A stretch of 64,000 bases of DNA from Terriglobia bacterium. GTDB taxonomy: Bacteria; Acidobacteriota; Terriglobia; Acidiferrales; UBA7541. The DNA is taken from NCBI GenBank assembly GCA_963695545.1, contig OY968796.1:2816001-2880000 (forward strand), read 5' to 3'. Below, piece by piece: positions 25,887-39,598 of this stretch; position 1 is the stretch's first letter; each line of letters begins with the position of its first letter. A program made the translations under genes and the position numbers. A model generated the notes under the pieces. The model did no database searches. It saw only the letters and a program-made list of their open reading frames with translations, and had not been told where the DNA came from.

Positions 25887-27701
25887 ATGACCCTCTCGCT
25901 CCTCGATTGGCTGGCCATCGCCGCGTATCTCACGCTGATGCTGGTGCTCGGCCTGCATTTCCGCCGCCGCTCCGCGCAGAGCACCGAAGACTACTTCGTC
26001 TCCGGCCGACAAGTCAGTTGGTGGCTCGCCGGCACGTCCATGGTCGCGACCACCTTCGCGGCCGATACGCCGCTCGTCGTCACTGGCTTGGTCTTCGCGC
26101 AAGGAGTAGCAGGGAATTGGCTGTGGTGGAGTTTTCTGCCGTCGGGAATGATGACAGTTTTTCTCTTTGCTCGCCTCTGGCGGCGTTCCGGTCTCCTGAC
26201 CGACGTGCAGTTCGCCGAGATGCGCTACGCCGGCGGCGCCGCGGCCTTCCTGCGCGGATTCCGCGCCGTCTATCTCGGCCTGCTCATGAATTGCCTGATT
26301 CTCGGCTGGGTCACCAAGGCGATGACCAGCATCGTCGCCGTCACTCTCGGCGTCACGCAAACCCACGCGCTCGCCATCTGCATTTTCTTCCTGATTCCGT
26401 TCACCGGGTTTTACGTTTCGCTCGGCGGTCTCTGGGGCGTTCTCTGGACCGATCTCTTCCAGTTCGTCCTGAAAATGTCTCTGGTAATCGCCGTGGCCTG
26501 GTTCGGAGTGCGCAGCGTAGGTGGCATGCACGCGCTTCTGGCTCATCTCGCGGCGCAGCGCGCCGCAGCCGGGCCCGGCGCTTCCAATATCACCGCCATG
26601 CTCCCCGATTTTTCGCACGGCTGGACATCCGAAGCGCTCTGGACTCTGCCCGTGCTCACGTTCTTCGTGCATCTCGGCGTGCAATGGTGGGCGTTCTGGT
26701 ATCCCGGAGCCGAACCGGGCGGCGGCGGCTACATCGCGCAGAGAATTTTCAGCGCGCGCAACGAACGCGAAGGCCTGCTCGCCGTCCTCTGGTTCAATAT
26801 CGCGCACTACGCCATTCGCCCCTGGCCGTGGATCGTCACCGCGCTTGTCGCCGTCGCGCTCTATCCCGGCCTCGCGCATCCCGAAGATGGCTATATGCGC
26901 GTCGCGACCACCACCATGCCGCACGCGCTGCGCGGCGTGCTGATCGCCGGATTCATGGCCGCGTTCATGTCCACCATCGCCACGCAGCTCAATTGGGGCA
27001 GCTCGTATTTAATCGAAGATTTCTATCGCCGCTTCCTGCGCCGCAACGCGAGCGAGCGCCACTACGTGCACGCCTCGCGCGTGGCAACTCTTCTTCTCGT
27101 CGCGGCCGCCGCCTATGTTTCCGCGCAACTCGCCACGGTCGGTCAAGGCTGGGAAGTTGTGCTCGAAGTCGGCGCGGGCACCGGCGGCGTCTATCTGCTG
27201 CGTTGGTATTGGTGGCGCATCAATGCCTGGAGCGAAATTTCCGCCATGGCCGCGGCTCTGGTCTCCACTCTCGCGCTGCACTGGCGAAATCCATTCGTCG
27301 GTTCCGTGCCGCTGGTCTTCGCCAAGACCACGCTCACGACCACCGCGATCACCACGATCGTTTGGGTCGCCGTAACTTTTCTCACTCCCGCCGAGCCCGA
27401 CGACGTCCTCACCCGCTTTTATCGCCACGTGCGTCCCGACGCGCTGGGCTGGCGTCCCATCGCCGCGCGCGCGCCGGAGGTGCCCCCGACCCATGACCTC
27501 GGCCGCAATCTTTTCGATTGGCTGCTCGGCTGCGTGATGGTTTACGCCGCGCTCTTCGCCGGCGGAAAATTTTGCTTCCTTCAATATCGCGCCGGCTTCG
27601 CGCTCAGCGCCGTAGCCATTGTTTCCGCCGTACTGCTCCATCGCGACATCACGCGCCGCTTCGACGCCGGCGCCAGTGCGACCGAGACCACAAGTGCCTG
27701 A
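25887..27701 (+). CDS. Sodium:solute symporter (SSS) family transporter
   Basis: EDYFVSGR, SMVATTFAADTPL, YIAQRIFSA, PWPW and AAFMSTIATQLNWG motifs; many TM helices. Confidence 0.93.
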   Translation: MTLSLLDWLAIAAYLTLMLVLGLHFRRRSAQSTEDYFVSGRQVSWWLAGTSMVATTFAADTPLVVTGLVFAQGVAGNWLWWSFLPSGMMTVFLFARLWRRSGLLTDVQFAEMRYAGGAAAFLRGFRAVYLGLLMNCLILGWVTKAMTSIVAVTLGVTQTHALAICIFFLIPFTGFYVSLGGLWGVLWTDLFQFVLKMSLVIAVAWFGVRSVGGMHALLAHLAAQRAAAGPGASNITAMLPDFSHGWTSEALWTLPVLTFFVHLGVQWWAFWYPGAEPGGGGYIAQRIFSARNEREGLLAVLWFNIAHYAIRPWPWIVTALVAVALYPGLAHPEDGYMRVATTTMPHALRGVLIAGFMAAFMSTIATQLNWGSSYLIEDFYRRFLRRNASERHYVHASRVATLLLVAAAAYVSAQLATVGQGWEVVLEVGAGTGGVYLLRWYWWRINAWSEISAMAAALVSTLALHWRNPFVGSVPLVFAKTTLTTTAITTIVWVAVTFLTPAEPDDVLTRFYRHVRPDALGWRPIAARAPEVPPTHDLGRNLFDWLLGCVMVYAALFAGGKFCFLQYRAGFALSAVAIVSAVLLHRDITRRFDAGASATETTSA

Positions 27702-29001
27702 CGCTCCCGGGCCATCGAGCGGCGGCGCAAGCAACGCCGGCGCGAGCGGCAGGGACGCGAGCGGCAGCAGCGGCGCGAACCGCGGCGAAGGTGTTGGTCG
27801 CAACACTCGCACCGGCCGCTCTCACGCCATCGCCGCCGGCCTGCTCGGCTTCACGTTCGACGCGTTCGATTTTTTCGTCGTAGTTTTTCTCATCGGCACG
27901 CTGGCCACCGCGTTTCGCGTCGACAAATCCGCCATCGTCTGGGCCATGACGCTCACTCTCGCCATGCGTCCCGTCGGCGCGCTGCTCTTCGGCCTGCTCT
28001 CCGACCGCTACGGCCGCCGCGTTCCGTTGATGATCAACGTAATTTATTTTTCGATCGTCGAAGTTCTCTGCGGCTTCTCACCCAACTTCACATTTTTTCT
28101 GGTGATGCGCGCGCTCTTCGGCATCGGCATGGGCGGCGAATGGGGCGTCGGCGCGTCGCTCACCATGGAAGCCGCGCCCATTCGCTGGCGCGGCTGGCTC
28201 AGCGGTGCGCTGCAAGGCGGATATCCCGCCGGATATTTGCTCGCCGCGGTCGCCGCGCGATTCCTCTTGCCCACCTGGGGCTGGCGCTCGATGTTTTTCG
28301 TCGGCGCGGTTCCCGCGCTTCTCGCGCTCTACATTCGCTCGAAAGTACCCGAATCCACGGCCTGGCAGCAGCGACGCGCGCCGTCGATGCTCGCCGTGTT
28401 GCGCTCGGTCGCGCAGGATTGGAAGAATTTCGCGTATCTCGCCGCGCTGATGGCTTTCATGCCGTTCCTTTCTCACGGCTCGCAGGATTTGTACCCCGAT
28501 TTCCTCCGCACCGTGCATCACGTCGCTGACGCCACCATCTCCAACATCGCAATCCTCTACAACGCCGCGGCCATACTCGGCGGCATCGCCTTCGGCCAAA
28601 TCTCGGAGTGGGTTGGCCGGCGAAAAAGCATGGTCGGCGCGCTCGTCGTTGCGCTTCTCGCGATTCCGCTCTGGGCCTTCGCCACCAATCTGCACGCGCT
28701 CGTGATTGGCGCCGTGCTCATGCAGATCGGCGCGCAGGGAACCTGGGGCGTCATCCCCGTTCATCTGAACGAGATGTCGCCCGATCACGCCCGCGGCCTC
28801 GTTCCCGGCCTCGCGTATCAGCTCGGAATCCTGATCGCCGCACCCACAAATTCAATCGAATACGCCCTGCGCGACCGTTTTGGTTACCAGTGGGCCCTCG
28901 CCGGTTTCGAGAGCGTGACGATCGTGGTGCTGATCGTACTGGTCTCGCTTGGTCACGAGCGCCGCGGCCGCAGCTTTTCCGCTCCCGCCGCGGGCCCGTA
29001 G
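27694..29001 (+). CDS. MFS transporter, SHS (NanT/Jen1-like carboxylate) family
   Basis: DAFDFF, MRPVGA, SDRYGRR, GMGGEWG and HGSQDLYP motifs. The GTG start overlaps the SSS stop. Confidence 0.9.
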   Translation: MPDAPGPSSGGASNAGASGRDASGSSGANRGEGVGRNTRTGRSHAIAAGLLGFTFDAFDFFVVVFLIGTLATAFRVDKSAIVWAMTLTLAMRPVGALLFGLLSDRYGRRVPLMINVIYFSIVEVLCGFSPNFTFFLVMRALFGIGMGGEWGVGASLTMEAAPIRWRGWLSGALQGGYPAGYLLAAVAARFLLPTWGWRSMFFVGAVPALLALYIRSKVPESTAWQQRRAPSMLAVLRSVAQDWKNFAYLAALMAFMPFLSHGSQDLYPDFLRTVHHVADATISNIAILYNAAAILGGIAFGQISEWVGRRKSMVGALVVALLAIPLWAFATNLHALVIGAVLMQIGAQGTWGVIPVHLNEMSPDHARGLVPGLAYQLGILIAAPTNSIEYALRDRFGYQWALAGFESVTIVVLIVLVSLGHERRGRSFSAPAAGP

Positions 29002-29249: not shown

Positions 29250-30320
29250 ATGCGGCCAGAACAATGGGAAACATTCAAGCGAGCGGCGCGCCGCGAAAAG
29301 ATGGACAAGATTCCGATGGCGCTGATCATCGACAGCCCATGGATTCCCGGGTACCTCGGAATCAAACACCTGGACTATTTCCTCGATCCTGAGCTCTGGT
29401 ACCGATCGAACCTGAAGATCATGGAGGAATTTCCCGACATCATCTTCGTCCCGTCGTGGTGGATGGAATACGGGATGGCGGCTGAGCCTTCCGTGCTCGG
29501 CAGCAAAATAAAATTTTGGCAGGACAATACTCCGAGTGAATACCACACGCTGCAACGCCTCGAAGATATCGATGAGTTCCCTGAGTACGAGGTCGAGGCG
29601 GATGCGTTCGCCGGTCTGACGTTGCATCGCATCGGAATGCATAAACAGCGTATTTTGGACGCCGGCTACATCCTTCCGATGGTCACGTCACGAGGCCCGT
29701 TGTGCACCGCGGGATTTGTGCGCGGAACTACAAAATTCATGATCGATCTTGTAGAAGATCCGAAGGGCGCGCACAGACTCATTGACCTTTGCACGCGCGT
29801 GATCATCGACTGGCTGAAGGCGCAGCAAAAAGTGATGGGCGATACGGTGGAGAGCATTTTTATTCTCGACGACATCGTTGGATTCATCAACGAGGAGCAT
29901 TACCTGGAGTATGCGCATCCTTACTTGAAGCGCATCTGCGACGCGTTCCCGAAAGATTGGGTGAAGGTCTATCACAACGACGCAGAAGTCGACGCGTGCC
30001 TCGATCACCTGCCGGACACCGGATTCACCGTGCTCAATTGGGGCAAGCAGCGGCACATCACCGAAGTGAAGAAGCGCGTGGGAGACAGGATGTGCCTGAT
30101 GGGCAATGTGAATCCTCTCGAAATCGGAGTTCGCGGTACGCCCGAAGAAGTGAGAGACGAAACTCTCGAAGTGCTGGAAGGCTCGGGCGGCGAGGGAATC
30201 ATTCTGTCCGTGGGCGGCGGCACAAGCCCGGGCATGCCGCGCGAAAATATCGTGGCCATGCTCGAGGCACTGAATGAATTTAACGGGCGGCGCTCCGGCA
30301 GCCGCGTTGCGAGCCGCTGA
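29250..30320 (+). CDS. UroD/MtaA-fold corrinoid-dependent methyltransferase
   Basis: RGPLCTAGFVRG, MGNVNP, GTPEEV and MPRENI motifs. Lacks the HemE RQAGR motif. Adjacent to a corrinoid protein. Confidence 0.85.
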   Translation: MRPEQWETFKRAARREKMDKIPMALIIDSPWIPGYLGIKHLDYFLDPELWYRSNLKIMEEFPDIIFVPSWWMEYGMAAEPSVLGSKIKFWQDNTPSEYHTLQRLEDIDEFPEYEVEADAFAGLTLHRIGMHKQRILDAGYILPMVTSRGPLCTAGFVRGTTKFMIDLVEDPKGAHRLIDLCTRVIIDWLKAQQKVMGDTVESIFILDDIVGFINEEHYLEYAHPYLKRICDAFPKDWVKVYHNDAEVDACLDHLPDTGFTVLNWGKQRHITEVKKRVGDRMCLMGNVNPLEIGVRGTPEEVRDETLEVLEGSGGEGIILSVGGGTSPGMPRENIVAMLEALNEFNGRRSGSRVASR

Positions 30321-30340
30321 CAGGGGCAAAGGAGAGCAGC

Positions 30341-30982
30341 ATGCCCGACTATGCGTTGATGAATCAGTTGCTCTATGAGGGCAACGCCGTCGAAGTGGAG
30401 CGGCTTACGAAAGAGGCTCTCGCCGAAGGGCGTACCGCGCAGGAAATATTGAACGATGGATTGATCGCGGGCATGAGCGTGGTTGGCGAGGATTTTAAGC
30501 ACAACGTGCTTTACGTTCCGGAAGTGCTGATCGCGGCGAGGGCGATGAAAGCGGGCATGGCGGTGCTGAAGCCGTTGCTGAGCGCGAAGGACGGTGGAAC
30601 CAAGCCCAAAGGCGTGCTGCTGATGGGCACGGTTCGAGGCGATCTGCACGACATCGGGAAAAACCTGGTGGGCATGATGGCAGAAGGCGCCGGATTTGAA
30701 GTGCACGACATCGGCGTGGATCAGAGCGTGGAAAAATTCATGGCCGCGGCGGAAAAGTGCAAACCGAACATTATCGGCATGAGCGCGCTTTTGACCACGA
30801 CGATGACGTACATGAAAACGGTGATCGATGGATTTGACGCCGCGGGCCTGACGCACATCCAGATGGCCGTGGGCGGCGCGCCGATCAGCCAGATGTTTGC
30901 CGACGAAATCGGCGCGGATGGTTACGGAGCGAACGCTTCAGCCGCGGTCGATTTATTTTTGCGGCTCACGGTGAAGGTGTAG
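30341..30982 (+). CDS. Corrinoid (B12-binding) protein
   Basis: Cap domain YVPEVLIAARAM, GDLHDIGKNLV, MSALLTTT and VGGAP. Confidence 0.95.
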   Translation: MPDYALMNQLLYEGNAVEVERLTKEALAEGRTAQEILNDGLIAGMSVVGEDFKHNVLYVPEVLIAARAMKAGMAVLKPLLSAKDGGTKPKGVLLMGTVRGDLHDIGKNLVGMMAEGAGFEVHDIGVDQSVEKFMAAAEKCKPNIIGMSALLTTTMTYMKTVIDGFDAAGLTHIQMAVGGAPISQMFADEIGADGYGANASAAVDLFLRLTVKV

Positions 30983-30988
30983 ACGACA

Positions 30989-31243
30989 GTGGCCACGTAC
31001 AAAATTCTTTATTGGCAGGAAATTCCCTCGCAAATCAAGGCCGAGGACGATTCAGACGACGTCACGCTGCCGCTCGATGACAAGTTCGCCGAACAGATCG
31101 ACAAAATGGCCGCGCAAAGAGGATTGACGAGCGCGGACGATTATCTCGCCCAGTGGAAATGGAGCGAGGAAGAAGAGCGCGAAGGTACGGCGCGCGAAGT
31201 AGCGGAAGCAGTGAAGGCGGAGCTTGAAGCGAAGGGCTGGTAG
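30989..31243 (+). CDS. 'Virulence factor' (PF13769-like) small protein
   Basis: YWQEIPSQI, F..IDKMA and DDYLAQWK. This family is found next to split methionine synthase genes. Confidence 0.8.
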   Translation: MATYKILYWQEIPSQIKAEDDSDDVTLPLDDKFAEQIDKMAAQRGLTSADDYLAQWKWSEEEEREGTAREVAEAVKAELEAKGW

Positions 31244-31255
31244 GAACTCTCCGGT

Positions 31256-32896
31256 ATGGCAGTGACCCTCACGATCAATGGACAGTCCATCGAGGCGAAT
31301 CCCGCTCTCTCGCTCTTCGACCAGGCCGAAGGCTTGGGCATTGATGTGCCCACTTCTTGCCGGAAGCAAGGCAAATGCAAGGAGTGCATGGTCGAAATTG
31401 TCGCGGGGATGGACGCTCTTTCGCCGCCCACCGCGCCCGAGCAGCATTTGAAAGGGAATTTTCGACTGTCGTGCCAAACGTATGTGACCGCAGAGAGCGG
31501 CGAGGTGCGCTGCCACACTATGCGCCGCGGGCATATGCGCATCGAACGCCATGCGCTCGGACTTCCGAACAGCGATCAGAAAATGAGGCTCGATCCGGCG
31601 GTGACTCGCGACGGAGATCGCATTCTGATTGACGGCGTCGAAGTGGAACGCTCGACCGGACCAATTCACGGCATCGCCATGGACCTTGGCACAACCACGA
31701 TTGTGCTTCGGCTGATCGATCTTGAAAGCGGCGAATTGATTGCGGACGCTTCGTTTGAGAATCCGCAACGATTCGGTGGATCCGACGTGATGGCTCGCAT
31801 CAGTTACGACGGCGAGCATCCCGGAAGACTTTTGATGCGCACGCTCGCGGGATATCTGAGCCACGCGATCGAAAAATTTCCGGTCGATCCAAAAACGATC
31901 TACGAGATGGTGGTGGTGGGCAACTCCACGATGCGCGATCTTTTTTTCCGCAAGAGCGTTTATTCGATTGGGCAGAACCCCTATCGCTCGATTACGGAAA
32001 TCGAAATGGCCGAAGGCAAGCGCTTGACGACAAGTCTTGTGGAAACTGGCGTGAGATGTTTGCTGCCGATTCATCCGAAAGCGCGCGTGTACGGCGCGCC
32101 GGTGATCAGCGGCCATGTGGGCGCGGATGCGGCGGCGTGCATGCTGGCGGTTGACATCGCGAATGAAGAGCGACTGGTGGCGGTGATGGACATCGGCACG
32201 AACACCGAACTGATCCTCGGCAACAAGCACCGCATTCTCGCGGCGTCTTGTCCGGCGGGGCCGGCGTTCGAGGGCGGCGCGATCGCGTGCGGCATGCCGG
32301 CTTTGGATGGGGCGATCGAGGAAGTCGCGATTGGCGACGACGGAAAAATTCGCCTGCGCGTGATCGGCGACGTTGCGCCCGAAGGCATTTGCGGATCGGG
32401 ATTGGTGGATGTGCTGAGCGAATTGCTTCGCACGGGGCGCATGAACGACATGGGACGATTCACGGATGACGTGCATCGCGTCACGCTCGATGAGGAACAC
32501 GACATTTATTTGCTCGAGAGCGACGTGAACGAATTGGCGCAGGCCAAGGGCGCGAACGTGGCTGGTCTGCACGTGGTTTTCAGCAGCTACGGCATCGACT
32601 TCGACGACATCGACGTTTTTTATCTGGCGGGAGGATTCGGGCGTCACCTGAACGTGGAAGCCTCGAAACGCATCGGCCTGGTGCCCAGTCTGCCGTCGCG
32701 AAAAATCGTGCAGGCAGGAAATACCGCGATTGAAGGCGCCACGATTGCGCTGCTCTCGAAATCGAAACGCGAGGAACTTGAACGTCTCGTAAAGAAAGTG
32801 GAGCACTGCCGGCTGGAAACGCATCCGCGCTTTTTCGATTTCTTCGTGGAGGGCTGCCAGTTTAAGCCCGTGGAGCCGATTCCATGCGCCCGGTAG
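31256..32896 (+). CDS. ASKHA reductive activator of corrinoid proteins (RACo/RamA-like) with [2Fe-2S] domain
   Basis: CRKQGKCKEC..RLSCQ, DLGTTT, ENPQRFGGSDV, DIGTNTE, GPAFEG, GICGSG and AGGFG motifs. Confidence 0.93.
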   Translation: MAVTLTINGQSIEANPALSLFDQAEGLGIDVPTSCRKQGKCKECMVEIVAGMDALSPPTAPEQHLKGNFRLSCQTYVTAESGEVRCHTMRRGHMRIERHALGLPNSDQKMRLDPAVTRDGDRILIDGVEVERSTGPIHGIAMDLGTTTIVLRLIDLESGELIADASFENPQRFGGSDVMARISYDGEHPGRLLMRTLAGYLSHAIEKFPVDPKTIYEMVVVGNSTMRDLFFRKSVYSIGQNPYRSITEIEMAEGKRLTTSLVETGVRCLLPIHPKARVYGAPVISGHVGADAAACMLAVDIANEERLVAVMDIGTNTELILGNKHRILAASCPAGPAFEGGAIACGMPALDGAIEEVAIGDDGKIRLRVIGDVAPEGICGSGLVDVLSELLRTGRMNDMGRFTDDVHRVTLDEEHDIYLLESDVNELAQAKGANVAGLHVVFSSYGIDFDDIDVFYLAGGFGRHLNVEASKRIGLVPSLPSRKIVQAGNTAIEGATIALLSKSKREELERLVKKVEHCRLETHPRFFDFFVEGCQFKPVEPIPCAR

Positions 32897-34143
32897 CCGA
32901 GATGGTCGAGCTGGCCAGCACTTCGCCGAATGTTGAGGTGTCGCCGGCGGAATACACGCGGCTGCTTGGTTATCCGCGCGATTGGGTGCTGGAAGGCCGG
33001 GCTCTGGAATTAGCGGATTTGGCGCGCGCGTGGTACGCGAAGTACGGGCGGCCGTGGGTTTATGCCCGCCAAGCGGAAAGCCTCGAGATCGACGGCGAAT
33101 CGATTCTGATCGATGGAATGCCGTTCGCGAGCAAACGGCTGCAGAGCACGCTGCAGCAGGCTGCGGCCCACAGCGTGATTCTGGTCGCGGTGGGCGCGGG
33201 TCCCGAAGCCGAGGAGGAAGCTCACAGACGCTGGGAGGATGAAAAGCCCGACGAATATTTTTTTCTTGAGATGTTCAGCTCCGCGGTCGTCGAGCATTTG
33301 ACCACTGTGACCGGAGCGAATCTGTGCGACTGGGCGGAACGCCACGAGATGGCTGTGTTGCCGCACTACAGCCCTGGATATCCCGAATGGGACATCGCCG
33401 AGCAACCGCACCTGCTCGAACTGGTGAAGCGCACGCGAAAGCACGCGTTGCCCTCCGCCGTCGAAGTGCTCGAGTCCGGCATGTTACGGCCGAAAAAAAG
33501 TTTGCTCGCGGTTTTCGGATTGACGCGGCACACGGACCGGTTGCGCAGACTGACGGAGCTTGTTCCTTGCGAGAATTGTTCGTTCGCGCCGTGCCAATAC
33601 AGGCGCGCGCCGTACCGGCGGGCTTTGCGCGCGAAGGGCGAGGAAGCGCCGGTGCGCATCGAGGTGCTGGACCAGGAAGCGGCGTACAGCGTGAATACCA
33701 GGGCGCTGAAGAGATGGGCGCAGGAACGGCTATCGATCGAGACCTGCGAGGACGGCAGTGTCGACGCGGTGTTCCGCTACGACGGAACCACTTGCAACAA
33801 CATGGGCCGGCCGCTGACTTTTCTTTACAGCGTGAAGCTCGGGCCGCGCGCCGATGGATATCCGATACGAGAGCAGCGCTGCGCGCCGGCCACGGGGGAT
33901 ACGGGCCACGCGCAGATGTGCCAATATCTTGAGAATCCCGAGCGGTTGATGAGTTCGATCGAAAGCGAGAAGCCGCTCAGTGGACAACGGTTGAACGCCG
34001 TGTTGTCATGGCGGCGCGAAGCCTGCGCCGCGGGGTGCTACTGCGAGCCTTATAGCCGCGAGCACAAGTGGGGCCTGGTGCTGGAAACGATTCACTACGC
34101 GCTGGTGCAAAAGGAATTGGAGCAGGAAGCGGAACGATCATGA
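32884..34143 (+). CDS. Methionine synthase activation-domain-like protein fused to a Cys-rich C-terminal domain
   Basis: YSPGYPEWDI, MLRPKKS..AVFG and CENC-x4-CQYR, followed by about 170 aa of unknown domain. Confidence 0.75.
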   Translation: MRPVAEMVELASTSPNVEVSPAEYTRLLGYPRDWVLEGRALELADLARAWYAKYGRPWVYARQAESLEIDGESILIDGMPFASKRLQSTLQQAAAHSVILVAVGAGPEAEEEAHRRWEDEKPDEYFFLEMFSSAVVEHLTTVTGANLCDWAERHEMAVLPHYSPGYPEWDIAEQPHLLELVKRTRKHALPSAVEVLESGMLRPKKSLLAVFGLTRHTDRLRRLTELVPCENCSFAPCQYRRAPYRRALRAKGEEAPVRIEVLDQEAAYSVNTRALKRWAQERLSIETCEDGSVDAVFRYDGTTCNNMGRPLTFLYSVKLGPRADGYPIREQRCAPATGDTGHAQMCQYLENPERLMSSIESEKPLSGQRLNAVLSWRREACAAGCYCEPYSREHKWGLVLETIHYALVQKELEQEAERS

Positions 34144-35081
34144 AGAAACTCTTGCAGGAAGCGATTCTCGAACGCCCATTGCTCAGCGACGGAGCTATGG
34201 GCACGCAGCTGATGATTGCCGGACTGGAACAGGGCAATTGCGGCGAGGAATGGAATCTGACGCAACGCGAAAAAGTGCTGGCGATTCATCGGCGTTACGC
34301 CGAGGCAGGAGGAGAGTGCCTGCTCACGAATACCTTCGGCGGTTCGCGCATCATGCTCACGCGCCACGGCAAACCGGATAAGGTCGTCGAAATCAACAAA
34401 GCGGCTGTGGGGATCGTCCGCGAAGCATTCGGCGCGAAGGACGGATACGTGATCGGGGACATCGGACCTTTCGGCGGGCTGATGGAACCGTACGGCGATT
34501 TCACCGAAGCCCAGGTACAGAGCGCGTTCGAGGAACAGGCCGGGGCGCTGGTGGACGCGGGAGCTGACGCCATCATCATCGAAACGCAGACGGGCCTTGA
34601 AGAACTTCTGCTGGGCATTCGCGCGGCGCAGAAAGCCGGCGCGCCGTGCATCATCGGGTCGATGGCCTACGACGTTACGCTCGACGGCTCGACGTTTCGG
34701 ACGATGATGGGTGTGGAACCGGAGCGCGCGGCCGAGTTCATGGAGGAAAACGGCGCGCATATCGTGGCGCTGAACTGCGGCACGCGCATGGACATGGTGC
34801 GCGCGAGAGAAGCTGTGGAGCGCTACAAGCAGGCGACAAGTTTGCCGGTGATGGTCTCGCCAAATGCGGGGCAACCGAAACTGATCAACATGAAAATCGT
34901 GTACGACGAAACGCCGGAGCAAATGGTGCAAGGTCTTGTGCCGCTGCTTGAGTCGGGCGCGAACATCGTGGGCGCATGTTGCGGCAGCACGCCGGAGCAT
35001 ATCGCCGCGTTCCGAAAAGCGATGGACGGATTTCTGGGATCGAATCACTCGAAATCGAACGGAGCTCGACGTGAAAGTTAA
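34140..35081 (+). CDS. Homocysteine S-methyltransferase (stand-alone MetH Hcy domain)
   Basis: DGAMGTQL, TNTFG, LNCG, PNAG and GACCG (Zn ligands). ATGA overlap with the upstream gene. Confidence 0.93.
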   Translation: MKKLLQEAILERPLLSDGAMGTQLMIAGLEQGNCGEEWNLTQREKVLAIHRRYAEAGGECLLTNTFGGSRIMLTRHGKPDKVVEINKAAVGIVREAFGAKDGYVIGDIGPFGGLMEPYGDFTEAQVQSAFEEQAGALVDAGADAIIIETQTGLEELLLGIRAAQKAGAPCIIGSMAYDVTLDGSTFRTMMGVEPERAAEFMEENGAHIVALNCGTRMDMVRAREAVERYKQATSLPVMVSPNAGQPKLINMKIVYDETPEQMVQGLVPLLESGANIVGACCGSTPEHIAAFRKAMDGFLGSNHSKSNGARRES

Positions 35082-35400
35082 ACTGTGCGATGTGAATCTG
35101 GGCGCGGCGGAAAAACTTCCGCCGCGCGGCGAAGACAAGTCGGGCGTCGGAGTTCATTACATGGACGCGTACATCAAGCCGATGAACGTGAAGCTCGAGG
35201 ACGGTACGCCGGTAAAGTGCAAACGCCGTGGATTGAAAATCACTCTTTCGGCTGGCGGAAAAAAGGGCGAAGGGCTGATGCGCAGGCTGGATGTGAGCCC
35301 TGATCCGGTCGTGATGCTCGACGCGGCGCTGCAGGAAGCTGCCAAGGCCGCGGGGATCGAGCTCGCGGTGGAAGACGGCGCGATATTCGTAACGCTCTGA
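35071..35400 (+). CDS. Hypothetical protein, last gene of the corrinoid operon
   Basis: GTG start after GGAG overlaps the upstream stop. 109 aa with normal composition. Confidence 0.65.
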   Translation: MKVKLCDVNLGAAEKLPPRGEDKSGVGVHYMDAYIKPMNVKLEDGTPVKCKRRGLKITLSAGGKKGEGLMRRLDVSPDPVVMLDAALQEAAKAAGIELAVEDGAIFVTL

Positions 35401-35497: not shown

Positions 35498-35574
35498 GCG
35501 CCCGTAGCTCAGCTGGATAGAGCGTCTGGCTACGAACCAGAAGGTCGGAGGTTCGACTCCTCTCGGGCGCGCCA
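35498..35574 (+). tRNA. tRNA-Arg (ACG)
   Basis: GCGCCCG acceptor stem, D-arm AGCTCAGCTGGATAGAGC, anticodon loop CTACGAA, GTTCGACTC T-loop and encoded CCA. Confidence 0.98.
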
Positions 35575-35791: not shown

Positions 35792-36328
35792 TCAGAGGAA
35801 AATGTGAAATGCGGAGAAGCCGAGTGCGGCGCCGATTGCGGAGCCGGCGATCACGTCGCTCAGGAAATGCATGCCGAGAATAATTCGCGAAGCCGCGATG
35901 CATAGGGCCACGAACAGCAGCGCGTCTTGCAATTGCGGATAGAACATTCCGATGCACACGGCCATGGCGAACGCGGTGATCGAATGGCCCGAGGGAAACG
36001 AGAACTGATCGGGAGGAAGCACGCGCGACCAGCAGTGAGGTTCTAGCTGGCAGGGACGCGTGCGGTGGCTGACGCGCTTGATTAGCTTGAAAATAAAAAT
36101 TCCGGCGACGGACGCGGTTCCTGCCGCGAGCACAGCGGTGAATCGCCGCGGACCGCCGAAGATCAGCAGGATGCAACCCAGCGAATACCACAGCCAACCA
36201 TCGCCGCAGCGGGTGGCTGAAACCATCAGCACGCGAAACCATCGCGGCGGGCGCCAGCGGTGCACGCGGCGCATCAGCCGGCGATCCCGGCTGTCGATAA
36301 AACCCCAGACGGCGCGCGTTACGGTCAT
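35792..36328 (-). CDS. PAP2 family lipid phosphatase
   Basis: K-x6-RP, SFPSGH and SRIILGMHFLSDV motifs. Confidence 0.93.
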   Translation of the reverse strand: MTVTRAVWGFIDSRDRRLMRRVHRWRPPRWFRVLMVSATRCGDGWLWYSLGCILLIFGGPRRFTAVLAAGTASVAGIFIFKLIKRVSHRTRPCQLEPHCWSRVLPPDQFSFPSGHSITAFAMAVCIGMFYPQLQDALLFVALCIAASRIILGMHFLSDVIAGSAIGAALGFSAFHIFL

Positions 36329-37218
36329 AGCGTTTTCTCCATCCCCACCGGCCGAAGCGAAGGACCGAGCGATCGTCCGCTGCGGCGCCGGCGGCGTGGC
36401 GGAACGACACGTTGCGCCCAGCGGCGGGCGAAAATGCGTTCCGACTCAAAGTTACCATAAGTGAAAGCGGGAACCAGAAGAGCGAGCGGCGCGAGCAAGG
36501 CCGGCCAGCGTTCTTCGCGCAGCAATTCCCATACGACGCGCAGCGCGACGCGCGTGGTCTGCGTGTAGCTTCCGCTTGAACCGCGCGCGCGGCACGAGCC
36601 GCGGCGCAGGCCAGCGAGAAATTCTTCTTTACTCTTGGCGCCGGGCACTTCGGTGTAGGCCGTGGCCGCGGCGCACACGGTGTGCGCGTCGCTGCCGCCG
36701 AGCGCGATTTTTTCGGTGCGCCGCGCGAGACGCGCGGCATGGCGATTCGTCTCCGGCAACATGTGGCCGTTCAGAGTTTCAAACGCGGGAAAGCTGTCGA
36801 TGAACCAGCGAAAATCTTCTTCGTGTCGCGGACCGGTGACGGAAGAAAAGATGTGGTTCACGGAAAAAAACAGATCCTGTTCGCCGAGATAGGCGACGAG
36901 AGCGGGCACGTCGGTGGCGCGCCGCTGAATTTCGACGTGCTGGCGCGGGGAGAGGTCATACACAGCGATGTGCGCTTCAGTGCCGCTGGGCATGCGGCAA
37001 GTGACTTCTTCGCTCGCGAAGAAATCGGGGTGCGCGCGCAGCGCCTCGCAACCATCGAGAGAATCATGGTCGGTTAATGTGACGAGGTGCATCCCCCGGC
37101 GCTTCACGACGGAGTAGACCTCTTCCGGTTCGCTGTAAGATTCCAGGCAAAAAGATTTGAGGACCGGCATCGTCGACGGCCCCGAGAACCGCGAGTGGAT
37201 GTGCAGGTCACATTTCAT
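36325..37218 (-). CDS. PHP-domain metallophosphoesterase
   Basis: DLHIHS, LTDHDS, NH and GGSDAH motifs. Confidence 0.9.
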   Translation of the reverse strand: MKCDLHIHSRFSGPSTMPVLKSFCLESYSEPEEVYSVVKRRGMHLVTLTDHDSLDGCEALRAHPDFFASEEVTCRMPSGTEAHIAVYDLSPRQHVEIQRRATDVPALVAYLGEQDLFFSVNHIFSSVTGPRHEEDFRWFIDSFPAFETLNGHMLPETNRHAARLARRTEKIALGGSDAHTVCAAATAYTEVPGAKSKEEFLAGLRRGSCRARGSSGSYTQTTRVALRVVWELLREERWPALLAPLALLVPAFTYGNFESERIFARRWAQRVVPPRRRRRSGRSLGPSLRPVGMEKTL

Positions 37219-37371
37219 AATACGTTCGTAGCTCCGGAATGTTACGGGGCGATGAAAACGCGGCTACATTATTGTAAATAAAAGACTTATTACTCTTTGG
37301 GCACGGACGGGCGTGGACGGCTAAAAGTCGGCGTTGCGTTTGGCCACGCTTGTGCTATTCCTAGCTCGATC

Positions 37372-38547
37372 ATGAAGCGAATCGAATTTATTTTCTTCGA
37401 TGCCGGCGGCGGCCACCGCAGCGCCGCGACCGCGCTGCAACTGGCCATTAAGTCGCGACAGATTGCGTGGGACGTGAATTTGATGAACCTGCAGGAGGAG
37501 CTCGACAAGCTCGACATCCTGCGGCGGATTACCGGCGTGCGCATCCAGGATGCTTACAATTCGATGCTGCGATCCGGATGGACGCTGGGCAGCGCGCAAA
37601 TTCTGCTCGCGTTGCAGGCGACTATTTGGGTGCATCACACGCTGCTGGTGAAACTGCTGGTGAAATACTGGCAAACGGTTTCGCCGGACATGGTGGTTTC
37701 GTTTGTGCCGCACTTCAATCGCGTGATCGGCGAAAGTTTTGAGATTGCGTTTCCGGGGCGGCCATTCGTGACGATACTCACGGATCTTGCGAACTATCCG
37801 CCGAATTTCTGGATGGAGCGGCGCGAGCAGGATTTTATTTGCGGCACGGATCGCGCCGAACAGCAGGCCTTGGAATTCACGGGCACGCGCGAGCGTGTGT
37901 TTCGAGTGTCGGGAATGATTCTTCATCCGCGCTTTTATGAGCCGCAGACGGCGGATCGCGCGGCGGCGCGCTCGGCGCTTGGCCTCGGCGCGAATCTGGC
38001 GACGGGGCTGGTTCTTTTCGGCGGCTTCGGATCCAGTGCGATCGAAAAAATTGTCGATCGTTTGGACGAAGCGGATTTGCCGATACAACTGATTCTGATT
38101 TGCGGACGCAACGAGCAAGTGCGCGCGCGACTGGCGGCGCGAGCGACGCGCATGCCGATTTTCGTCGAAGGATTCACCACGAACATTCCGTATTACATGC
38201 ACCTTTCGGATTTTTTCATAGGGAAGCCCGGCCCGGGCAGCGTGAGCGAAGCGATCGCCATGCAATTGCCGGTGATCGTGGAGTGCAATGCGTGGACGCT
38301 TCCGCAGGAACGCTACAACGCAACGTGGGTGACGGAGAAGCAAGTGGGAATCGCTGTGGATAATTTCCGCAGCATCGTTCCCGCCGTCGAGCAGTTGCTG
38401 CGCGACGGCACGCTCGAACGATTTCGCGCGAACGCCGCCGCGCTGCCGAACCGCGCGGTCTTCGAGATTCCCGATATCCTCGAGCAGATCCTCGAACGCA
38501 GCGCAGAGCCGTCACAGGTTTTTGCGAAGGCGGCTGAATGCCGTTGA
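37372..38547 (+). CDS. MGDG synthase/UgtP-like glycosyltransferase (GT28)
   Basis: GGGHRSAA, TILTD, ICGRN, GKPGPGSVSEA and PQERYNA motifs. Confidence 0.9.
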   Translation: MKRIEFIFFDAGGGHRSAATALQLAIKSRQIAWDVNLMNLQEELDKLDILRRITGVRIQDAYNSMLRSGWTLGSAQILLALQATIWVHHTLLVKLLVKYWQTVSPDMVVSFVPHFNRVIGESFEIAFPGRPFVTILTDLANYPPNFWMERREQDFICGTDRAEQQALEFTGTRERVFRVSGMILHPRFYEPQTADRAAARSALGLGANLATGLVLFGGFGSSAIEKIVDRLDEADLPIQLILICGRNEQVRARLAARATRMPIFVEGFTTNIPYYMHLSDFFIGKPGPGSVSEAIAMQLPVIVECNAWTLPQERYNATWVTEKQVGIAVDNFRSIVPAVEQLLRDGTLERFRANAAALPNRAVFEIPDILEQILERSAEPSQVFAKAAECR

Positions 38548-38614
38548 CGCTTCGCGCCGTGGAGACTTGCGAGAACGCGCTTTACATTTCAAGTTTCCCC
38601 GCGATGAGCGGCGC

Positions 38615-39598
38615 GTGGTAGCACCCATCCGCAAGGCCGTCTTGATTTACAACCCAGTGAGCGGGCGGCGGCGCTCGCGGCGCCTCGTCGAGATCGAGAC
38701 GGCGGGCAAAATTCTTTCCGACGCGGGTATCGCGATCGAATTCGCGCCGACGTTCGACCCCGGCTCGGGGACTACGATCGCGCGGCAGGCCGTGGCGCAA
38801 AAGTTCGATCTGGTGATCGCGTGCGGCGGCGACGGGACGGTGAACGAAATCGTGAACGGCCTGGCCGGCAGCAGAGTGCCGATGGCGCTGCTTCCCGCGG
38901 GCACGGCCAATATTTTGGCCAAGGAACTCGGGATTCCGTGGAACATTCCGGCCGCGGCTCGCTTGATACCTTCGAGCACGCCGCGGCGAATCGCGCTTGG
39001 GAGCATCGCGGCGCCGGGAGAACAGACCAACGGCAATTCGCCGCACGCGGATCGCTACTTCCTGTGCGTTGGCGGCAGCGGGCCGGACGGCGCAATCGTC
39101 AACGGTGTGGATTCCAAGCTGAAAAAAAGCATCGGCCAATTTGCGTATTGGGCGGAAGGGATGCGTCAATTATTCACGTACAAATTTCCGTTGATGCGCG
39201 TCGAATCGCGCGAGCGCACCGTCGACGCCACGATCGTAGTCGTCGGGCGAACGGCCGAGTACGGCGGGCCATTCAGAATCACCGACGGCGCCAGCCTATA
39301 CGAGAATTGTTTTGAGATCGTGGCTTTTTCAACGCGGAGCCGGCTGCGTTATCTGTTTGCGTTGCCCGCGCTTTACTTCGGCAAATTGCGCGGCGTGCGC
39401 GGAATCAGCGCGTGGAAGACGGCGGACGTGACATGCACGCCGCTCCCGGGCGGAACGCTCTACGCGCAACTGGACGGCGAGCCGGTCGGCGCGCTGCCGC
39501 TGCGATTTCGCATCGTTCCCGACGCGCTCACGCTGATGGTTCCATCCAGCGCGGCGAAAGCCAGCGACGCCGCCCAAGCGCCGAAGCAAACTGAATAA
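38615..39598 (+). CDS. Diacylglycerol/lipid kinase family protein
   Basis: NPVSG, GGDGTVNE, PAGTAN, YGG and QLDGE motifs. Start approximate. Confidence 0.9.
   Translation: MVAPIRKAVLIYNPVSGRRRSRRLVEIETAGKILSDAGIAIEFAPTFDPGSGTTIARQAVAQKFDLVIACGGDGTVNEIVNGLAGSRVPMALLPAGTANILAKELGIPWNIPAAARLIPSSTPRRIALGSIAAPGEQTNGNSPHADRYFLCVGGSGPDGAIVNGVDSKLKKSIGQFAYWAEGMRQLFTYKFPLMRVESRERTVDATIVVVGRTAEYGGPFRITDGASLYENCFEIVAFSTRSRLRYLFALPALYFGKLRGVRGISAWKTADVTCTPLPGGTLYAQLDGEPVGALPLRFRIVPDALTLMVPSSAAKASDAAQAPKQTE

Follow-up and report, generated by a model that had tools for sequence, protein, structure and literature searches.

A conserved seven-gene corrinoid methyltransferase cassette of soil Acidobacteria, with 4-O-methylglucuronate as a candidate methyl donor

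We analysed a 64,000-nt stretch of DNA (the window) from Terriglobia bacterium GCA_963695545.1 (contig OY968796.1, positions 2,816,001-2,880,000; genome label G000), in which seven plus-strand open reading frames (ORFs), g1 to g7, span positions 29250-35400 (Table 1). The seven genes are a real and conserved cassette of soil Acidobacteria that combines a UroD-fold methyltransferase (g1), a corrinoid protein (g2), a reductive activator (g4) and a homocysteine S-methyltransferase (g6). Judging from sequence, we slightly favour the view that 4-O-methylglucuronate, or a catabolite of it, is demethylated via cob(I)amide and that the methyl group goes to homocysteine, in the manner of the Ruegeria MtgBCDE system with a new donor module. 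A wider reading, to which we give even chances, holds that g1 represents the first family of cobamide-dependent sugar O-demethylases, which would split the alkyl ether bond in 4-O-methylglucuronate by an O2-independent reaction, sending the xylan methyl group through g2 and g6 to methionine in abundant soil and peat Acidobacteria, while distant clades would act on other methylated sugars. Part of this reading is a novel reactivation set of RACo, a divergent and Cys-rich-extended MetH activation domain, a PF13769 protein and an orphan.

No paper explaining how bacteria handle the 4-O-methyl group of xylan glucuronate was found in the literature searched, which largely left out subscription journals; a xylan-locus paper routes 4-O-methylglucuronate straight into the uronate pathway (PMC4194401; statements on cited papers refer to the parts available). 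The cassette offers a clonable candidate, g1, and a competing candidate, a GlucD-like enolase, which makes the question directly testable. If g1 acts as proposed, corrinoid O-demethylases would be extended from aryl to sugar ethers, and, for a dominant phylum of soils, the decay of hemicellulose would be tied to the making of methionine and to the need for B12. By such a route, plant methyl groups in peat might also be kept from ending up as free methanol.

Organization and conservation of the cassette

The intergenic gaps from g1 to g7 are +20, +6, +12, -13, -4 and -11 nt, and a tRNA-Arg gene follows g7 at 35498. Apart from this tRNA, an Rfam scan gave no riboswitch or other match, and promoter and terminator counts did not exceed the chance level. 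The start of g7 is most likely the GTG at 35071 rather than the listed TTG at 34936.

A scan of species-representative genomes gave at least 539 relatives of g1 in at least 597 stretches, and the best 80 (88-93% identity, every record titled Acidobacteriota) were used as the closest loci. The order g1-g7 is kept in all 69 of these loci that extend at least 6 kb downstream of g1, with apparent frameshifts splitting some genes. The original prediction for the window, which had described seven closely spaced or overlapping genes and called for a survey of synteny, agrees with the ORF gaps, the Pfam matches and this uniform order. Distribution of the cassette is patchy: g1 was present at 83% or more in 16 of 400 genomes of the class and 4 of 301 of the phylum, G000 included. 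The 16 genomes of the class sample are referred to as cassette-type genomes; the 80-locus sample, a 50-genome sample drawn from it and the class sample overlap, and kin are not independent. Among the first 12 class loci fetched, all seven genes were present in eight, g3 was not found in three (L122, L129 and L131), and a contig edge cut one. No description of the cassette was found in the literature searched, a search that left out most subscription journals and all supplements.

Table 1. Genes of the cassette, their positions in the window and their assigned or proposed products
Gene	Position	Strand	Length (aa)	Product
g1	29250..30320	+	356	UroD-superfamily TIM-barrel methyltransferase, putative donor-side methyltransferase (MT1); candidate 4-O-methyl-uronate:corrinoid methyltransferase
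g2	30341..30982	+	213	Stand-alone corrinoid protein (cap + B12-binding), methyl carrier
g3	30989..31243	+	84	PF13769 protein, presumed accessory
g4	31256..32896	+	546	ATP-dependent reductive activator of the RACo/RamA type; [2Fe-2S] domain at the N terminus
g5	32884..34143	+	419	MetH activation-domain fold (N-terminal ~245 aa) and Cys/His-rich C-terminal domain
g6	34140..35081	+	313	Stand-alone homocysteine S-methyltransferase domain, MtgE/MetH type
g7	35071..35400	+	109	Conserved orphan alpha/beta protein, overlaps g6

Methyltransferases, corrinoid carrier and reactivation proteins

g1 matches the Pfam family URO-D (PF01208, E 1e-40) and stays far under the NCBIfam cut-offs for MtaA/CmuA (TIGR01463, 98 vs 235 bits) and hemE (TIGR01464, 58 vs 303 bits). 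Among solved proteins, the MT1 CdmB is its best relative (E 1e-11, with an alignment that covers the C-terminal half only). The family motifs are D28-S-P-W, E73-Y-G, E79, R148-G-P, D207, H242-N-D244 and N263; H242-N-D244, together with a Gly at the last Cys/His position, occurs in nearly all of 49 family rows. We take the RQAGR motif, a catalytic Asp and a C-terminal His to be the hallmarks of HemE, and H-x-C...C to be the zinc site of the MtaA/MtbA/Mlp thiol methyltransferases. The HemE columns of g1 read IDSPW (at RQAGR), MEYG and GGG. A separate, true hemE is encoded in G000 (388 bits vs 140 for g1, 21% identity to g1) and is distant from g1 in a quick tree without bootstrap, in which HemE lies on a long branch. 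The original call of a UroD/MtaA fold that is not HemE is borne out by scores, motifs and tree. HemE was ruled out by the hemE score, the three column readings and the separate hemE, and an MtaA/MtbA/Mlp thiol methyltransferase by H242-N-D244...G and the MtaA/CmuA score. The idea that g1 acts as a decarboxylase akin to HemE, or as a thiol methyltransferase of the MtaA type in methyl-sulfide metabolism as proposed for mlp clusters, could draw on the shared Pfam family, on the weak matches to both models and on the mlp clusters, which likewise come without a folate methyltransferase (PMC10418091), but in view of these departures we regard it as very improbable.

The gene for g2 comes after g1 in 79 of the 80 closest loci, and g1 is the best-conserved gene of the cassette (88-93%). 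The predicted g1-g2 complex scored 0.75 against 0.00 for the best of three controls, a value that may reflect likeness to solved methyltransferase-corrinoid complexes; of 157 solved complexes, 116 attained the mark set for this score, as did 2 of 215 mismatched pairs. Runs agreed in at least 78% of contacts, and the predicted local distance difference test (pLDDT) of the partners was at least 90. As in corrinoid-dependent MT1s of the UroD superfamily, the barrel is encoded with a corrinoid protein and an activator. The conserved residues R148, E73, E79, D207, H242, D244 and N263 suggest a larger polar ligand. UroD-family donor-side MT1s include O-demethylases, some of them Zn-free (PMC13222342). 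For 10 distant g1 relatives, a cluster look-up returned the name "uroporphyrinogen decarboxylase" only.

The putative carrier, g2, carries the Pfam domains B12-binding_2 (PF02607) and B12-binding (PF02310), with DLHDIG at position 101. Its best NCBIfam models are of the MtgC/MtbC type, all below cut-off, and its sole other tblastn match in G000 is MetH. At the acceptor end, g6 matches S-methyl_trans (PF02574, E 2e-57), and its best solved match is Thermotoga maritima MetH (E 1e-43). Residues C213, C280 and C281, as well as the DGAMG, GDIGP, ET and PNAG motifs, align to MetH; these we take, from the features of MetH, to be the three Zn cysteines and the homocysteine pocket. By these sites g6 appears to be a PF02574 homocysteine S-methyltransferase. 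The original proposal that a relay from donor through corrinoid to homocysteine is encoded within one cassette is supported by this gene content.

Reactivation of the corrinoid would fall to g4, which gave above-cut-off Pfam matches to Fer2 (PF00111), Raco_middle (PF17651) and RACo_C (PF14574), and has cysteines 35, 41, 44 and 73. With a [2Fe-2S] domain, an ASKHA middle domain and a C-terminal domain it has the make-up expected of a RACo/RamA activator, and tblastn of G000 gave no second copy. g3 is a match to PF13769 (E 1.5e-16).

g5 has no Pfam match, PF02965 included. Its AlphaFold2 (AF2) model (pLDDT 65) gave TM0269 (1j6r) as the top Foldseek match (E 1.4e-6); in a VIA comparison with 1j6r, Z was 15.3 and the root-mean-square deviation 2.9 over 184 aligned residues, and the next unrelated row had Z 7.0. 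In addition, hhalign of g5 to the PF02965 protein of the distant metagenome locus L263 gave a probability of 96.7. The earlier label "MetH activation-like" is thus held by structure and profile match, for residues ~6-245 only, to which the fold is confined. The RYSPGY of the L263 protein reads HYSPGY in g5, and this His (H161) is invariant in 46 sequences. We take the Arg of RxxPGY to be the residue that binds S-adenosylmethionine (AdoMet) in the MetH activation domain; because an invariant His replaces it, AdoMet use by g5 is uncertain. Further invariant residues in the 46 sequences are C148, C229, C232, C237, C304, C333, C346, C385, C387, H394 and H404, with five invariant Cys and two invariant His falling in the C-terminal domain. 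This domain gave no Atlas match, and the g5 profile found no sequence match in the PDB.

The orphan g7 is kept in 69 of 69 complete loci, with 70-89% identity across 41 sequences, and has thousands of close homologs (7889 matches among 8000 candidates scored). No Pfam family, no Foldseek match at E<=0.001 and no Atlas match were found for it (AF2 pLDDT 74; best VIA Z 3.3), which is not proof of a new fold.

The observed gene content, order, folds, motifs and co-occurrence would fit the following course, of which we infer the donor, the direction and the roles of g3, g5 and g7. After de-esterification by CE15, GH67 and GH115 would release 4-O-methyl-D-glucuronate from glucuronoxylan. As its family suggests, g4 would reduce Co(II)-g2 to Co(I) with ATP, and g3, g5 and g7 would probably assist it in keeping the g2 cobamide as Co(I). 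g1, predicted to bind g2, would take the O-methyl group from 4-O-methyl-D-glucuronate, or from the methylated catabolite formed first, and place it on Co(I)-g2. Freed of its methyl group, the uronate could then enter the ordinary UxaC/UxuB/ManD or KduI/KduD route, to which gene context points. From CH3-Co(III)-g2 the methyl group would presumably pass through g6, whose acceptor site is indicated by conserved residues, to homocysteine, so that methionine would arise without any folate step in the cassette. In some genomes, G000 included, a separate operon of MetF-MetV and a pterin methyltransferase would link g2 to the tetrahydrofolate (THF) pool and serve as methyl overflow or as a second way in.

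Gene context of the methyl donor

GH115 and CE15 act on the same xylan residue as GH67 alpha-glucuronidase. A GH67 gene is present in 15 of the 16 cassette-type genomes and in 85 of the 384 others, kin not being independent. Within families, cassette-type genomes compare with the rest as 3/3 vs 11/78, 2/2 vs 26/79, 6/6 vs 20/69 and 1/2 vs 19/76, so that the excess holds in four families; in a fifth, GH67 is present in 3/3 cassette-type genomes and there are no comparator genomes. GH67 lies within 10 kb of the cassette-type g1 in 8 of 13 class loci fetched, that is, in 8 of the 16 genomes; in the three cassette-type genomes outside these 13 loci it is distant or on another contig. Counting L054 and L063, GH67 is found near the cassette in at least five gene arrangements: enolase-cassette-SDR-GH67 (SDR, short-chain dehydrogenase/reductase), divergent enolase-SDR-GH67, enolase-GH67-cassette, SDR-GH67-uronate isomerase-cassette-CE15, and a divergent GH67-GH3 fusion. 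Functionally, GH67 frees (4-O-methyl)glucuronate from aldouronates (PMC4194401). Beside g1-family genes we also observed a GH67-CE15-GDSL fusion of 1453 aa (L106:3521-7882) and a GH67-GH3 fusion of 1638 aa (L174:2481-7397).

The same context recurs outside the cassette itself. In the quick tree the cassette clade nests in a sister clade of 49-59% identity. Among 20 sister loci (21 genomes), GH67, GH115 or CE15 is present in 8 and any uronate gene in 11, and the three marker families are present in 0 of 19 other loci from such genomes; full-length queries were used for these neighbour counts. The L263 locus, whose g1 homolog is 33% identical to g1, encodes GH115, a corrinoid protein, a homocysteine methyltransferase (HMT), the PF02965 protein and this homolog in one run. 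Overall, the recurring neighbours are GH67, GH115, CE15, uronate isomerase, a UxuB/KduD-like SDR and ExuT. G000, whose completeness of 93.8% is the figure against which its genome-wide blanks are to be read, encodes GH67 with GH3, GH115, CE15, kduI/kduD, uxaC and manD, and gave no MtaB and no MttB (PF06253) match. In all five genomes with a lone sister gene that were tested, a corrinoid protein is encoded elsewhere, always beside DUF1638 and in three cases beside RACo, which fits the expectation for a plug-in donor module. Of the donors listed in the original prediction, the methylated sugar is the class that this xylan and uronate context supports best.

A number of observations weigh against 4-O-methylglucuronate as the donor. 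GH67, GH115 or CE15 is nearby in only 3 of the 80 closest loci, and in G000 about 1 Mb separates GH67 and the cassette. No GH67 match was obtained in one cassette-type genome (G654, 95% complete), and 12 of the 20 sister loci lack all three marker families. Since GH67 occurs in 72 of 363 genomes without a g1-family match, the cassette is dispensable for glucuronoxylan use. In 80 loci of a distant g1 clade, 43 of them at least 8 kb long, GH115 was found in one, GH67 or CE15 in none and a corrinoid gene in two. Alkyl ethers leave less readily than the aryl ethers that known O-demethylases cleave, and no metal site has been demonstrated in g1. Finally, a co-located enolase might itself remove the 4-O-methyl group as methanol by elimination, which is chemically plausible, so methanol stays a rival donor.

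This GlucD-like enolase (L123:5697-6956 and orthologs of 61-97% identity) is a candidate 4-O-methyl-uronate methanol-lyase. It is encoded in 56 of the 400 class genomes, namely 9 of the 16 cassette-type genomes, 10 of the 21 sister-type genomes and 37 with neither, and it co-occurs with GH67 in 38 of the 56. The background counts for GH67 (G620) and for the enolase (G658, G422, G620 and G633) contain genomes flagged as unpublished, on which nothing else depends. In L123-L127 and L122 an ortholog is the immediate upstream neighbour of g1; it is divergent in L129 and L131, and near the sister gene in 7 of the 20 loci. If the enolase, or else ManD or UxuA, eliminated methanol, g1 could be a non-MtaB methanol:corrinoid methyltransferase that feeds methionine synthesis by salvage. 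Such salvage would explain the xylan linkage equally well, and it accords with the adjoining enolase genes, with the 37 enolase genomes that do without the g1 family and with the missing MtaB of G000. Nevertheless, we consider it unlikely: no enolase ortholog was found in 7 of the 16 cassette-type genomes, G000 among them, the conserved polar residues of g1 point to a larger ligand, and a methanol user would have no need to stay by one glycosidase family.

Equally doubtful, in our estimation, is that the same relay serves another donor, either a different methylated sugar, as in pectin or rhamnogalacturonan II, or an aryl methyl ether that comes from lignin; shared plant-wall regulation would then lie behind the link to xylan. 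CE15 acts at lignin-xylan esters, which would suit this alternative. The characterised UroD-family MT1s use aryl methyl ethers or haloalkanes (PMC13222342), and Acidobacteriota express methoxy-type mtxB in peat (PMC10805028). The usual neighbours in the 80 loci of the distant clade are not xylan genes; they include gcvP (36), a Gfo/Idh/MocA oxidoreductase (35) and DUF6807 (20). Against another donor stand the recurring xylan and uronate neighbours of the cassette and sister loci, and no aromatic-catabolism family was among the recurring neighbour clusters that are annotated, a subset of all. As to the layout of the distant clade (L185-L264), gcvP in most cases comes immediately upstream of its g1 homolog, and a gene for a PF16490 oxidoreductase or DUF6807 downstream of it; in 78 of the 80 loci, many of them short, there is no corrinoid gene nearby.

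The folate branch and comparison with known systems

No pterin-binding or MetF match was found by tblastn of the window, in agreement with the original prediction; no Pfam scan of the whole window was made. Searches of the whole genome, which that prediction had also proposed, brought to light further genes elsewhere: a fused MetH (C1:604046-607612), a stand-alone pterin methyltransferase, and a YitJ-type fusion of HMT and methylenetetrahydrofolate reductase (MTHFR). All 13 cassette-type genomes examined keep a MetH-type pterin domain, in a frame of 594-1300 aa, and because of this the cassette is not the cell's methionine synthase; in that sense the description "split methionine synthase" is weakened. 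Moreover, pieces of MetH can act in trans, and with MetH kept in all 13 genomes strict folate independence is therefore beyond proof by sequence. No full MetE match was found in G000; a weak Meth_synt_2 match (29.9 bits) in a 356-aa frame (G000:C1:2735397-2735927, locus L008) is possibly a core-MetE-like protein. MetH matches in two frames, one for the HMT part and one for the rest, were seen at L162:6787-10493 (G241) and reflect a split gene or an assembly error.

The stand-alone pterin methyltransferase of G000 (C1:3127860-3128789) is divergent and forms a trio with a MetF-MetV fusion and an amidohydrolase (C1:3126250-3130099; L091:10251-14100), ~275 kb from the cassette; the trio is intact in 11 of 11 loci fetched. 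A PF00809 search of G000 gave DHPS and MetH only and overlooked this enzyme, so blanks of the Pfam family searches were re-tested with custom profiles. Of the 80 closest loci, 8 have the trio adjoining the cassette, with the MetF-MetV gene within the stretch in 7 of the 8, and the pterin methyltransferase is encoded in 22 of 50 further cassette genomes (50 of the 80, the 8 adjacent cases excluded). In the class sample, 4 of 4 close copies fall in cassette-type genomes; a fifth copy (39% identical) lies within its own corrinoid/UroD/RACo operon, and three genomes (G715, G468 and G607) carry a different MetF-MetV/pterin pair that the single-protein query missed. Counting both pair types, 7 of the 16 cassette-type genomes, G000 included, encode a stand-alone pterin methyltransferase, and in the other 9 the profile searches gave only MetH- and YitJ-type pterin domains. 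These 9 include a single-contig genome (G259) and a two-contig genome (G241), both 99% complete. Since the enzyme is found in 7 and not in 9 genomes, the folate branch looks optional, and the cassette looks like a hub with such a branch rather than a strictly folate-free operon. Of the original "folate-independent" claim there remain the absence of a folate step from the cassette and the 9 genomes; the adjacent trios and the unlinked one of G000 do not fit it. Synteny with a pterin methyltransferase, named beforehand as evidence that would speak against the claim, is present in part.

Given that g2 is the only evident stand-alone corrinoid protein of its type in G000, where g4 is the only RACo, the pterin methyltransferase most likely serves g2. 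One might go further and regard the cassette as a split MetH fed by methyl-THF, either by way of the unlinked pterin methyltransferase or by fused MetH lending its pterin domain in trans, with g1 as a corrinoid-independent sugar enzyme or a minor input. Besides the linkage of the trio to cassette genomes and the lack of another evident partner for it, gcvT lies beside the trio in 8 of the 11 loci, all from other genomes, no Fhs match for onward oxidation was found in G000, and a corrinoid gene is near only 1 of 20 sister and 2 of 80 distant g1 homologs; all this would agree with folate feeding. The reading is nonetheless improbable, and we rank it below the two donor alternatives: no such enzyme was found in 9 of the 16 genomes, g1 precedes g2 almost without exception and is the best conserved gene, the complex prediction supports g1-g2 binding, and a second folate-fed synthase would be redundant with fused MetH. 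In G000, an NAD-formate dehydrogenase gene is convergent with the trio.

Among known systems, the cassette seems to work like the MtgBCDE hub of Ruegeria pomeroyi, in which a donor MT1, an HMT and a pterin module are connected by one corrinoid protein (PMC12478193), and like the split MetH of Phaeobacter inhibens, which works with RamA (PMC5764234); by our comparison it is not a member of either. Features in common are a stand-alone corrinoid protein shared by an MT1 specific for its donor and a PF02574 module on a chain of its own, reactivation of the RamA type and function outside strict anaerobes; a pterin module together with a MetF paralog belongs to them only in those cassette genomes where one was found. 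Unlike in MtgBCDE, the donor module has the UroD fold and is not MttB (no PF06253 match in G000 or the cassette), and MT1 and HMT stand in one operon. The seven genes gave no DUF1638 (PF07796) match, the rest of G000 being unsearched for it, and have the MetH-activation-fold protein, PF13769 and the orphan instead. MtgD is essential in the Roseobacter system, whereas no pterin module turned up in 9 of the 16 cassette-type genomes; most MtgBCD genomes lack fused MetH, whereas cassette genomes keep it.

The anaerobic O-demethylase/Cdm systems (OdmB, VdmB, MtvB, MtoB and CdmB) likewise combine a UroD-superfamily MT1, a corrinoid protein and an activating enzyme, but their acceptor is THF or coenzyme M and their donors are aryl ethers or haloalkanes (PMC13222342), whereas the cassette would use homocysteine and has the gene context of a sugar ether. 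Type 1 mlp clusters resemble the cassette in having a UroD-family methyltransferase, a corrinoid protein, Ram/RACE and no folate methyltransferase in the cluster; they differ in two or three MtaA-like Mlps with proposed methyl-S/Se chemistry (PMC10418091), where the cassette has a single enzyme that is not MtaA, an HMT and conserved synteny. Sugar demethylases of the P450 kind also remove a sugar O-methyl group in a setting of polysaccharide use (PMC6292453); theirs is an oxidative, O2-dependent reaction, whereas the cassette would conserve the methyl group by transfer to cobamide. Methoxy- and methanol-type mtxB genes expressed by Acidobacteriota in peat (PMC10805028) are not tied to the cassette. 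Like fused MetH and the split activation domain TM0269 of T. maritima, the cassette offers an HMT Zn site, a cobalamin motif and the fold of the activation domain; unlike in fused MetH they are in separate ORFs with no pterin domain and with RACo present too, and unlike in MetH and TM0269 g5 carries a His in place of the Arg of RxxPGY as well as an additional Cys-rich domain.

Other corrinoid operons were observed in related genomes. A complete O-demethylase-like operon at L139:8464-16329 (G692) encodes MetV, MetF, a corrinoid protein, a UroD-family protein, RACo, a pterin methyltransferase and an amidohydrolase. Sister-clade genomes hold other hubs (L155, L158 and L159), with a corrinoid protein, MetF-MetV, a pterin methyltransferase, HMT, DUF1638 and RACo in L155, and HMT, DUF1638, two UroD-family proteins, RACo, a corrinoid protein and MttB in L159.

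Directly upstream of the cassette, at 25887-29001 of the window, are genes for an SSS symporter and an MFS transporter, the latter with the sialate:H+ symporter as its best model at a score under cut-off. They were rejected as parts of the cassette, a close counterpart being shared with only 1 of the 80 loci (L051). Cytochrome bd oxidase genes adjoin the cassette in two genomes (L128:4510-6968, where subunit I is Pfam-confirmed, and L132:3890-6320), hinting at a micro-oxic niche. Past the tRNA-Arg gene, positions 35792-39598 of the window encode a PAP2 phosphatase, a PHP-domain protein, a glycosyltransferase 28-like protein and a DAGK/YegS kinase, a group that resembles ordinary lipid metabolism.

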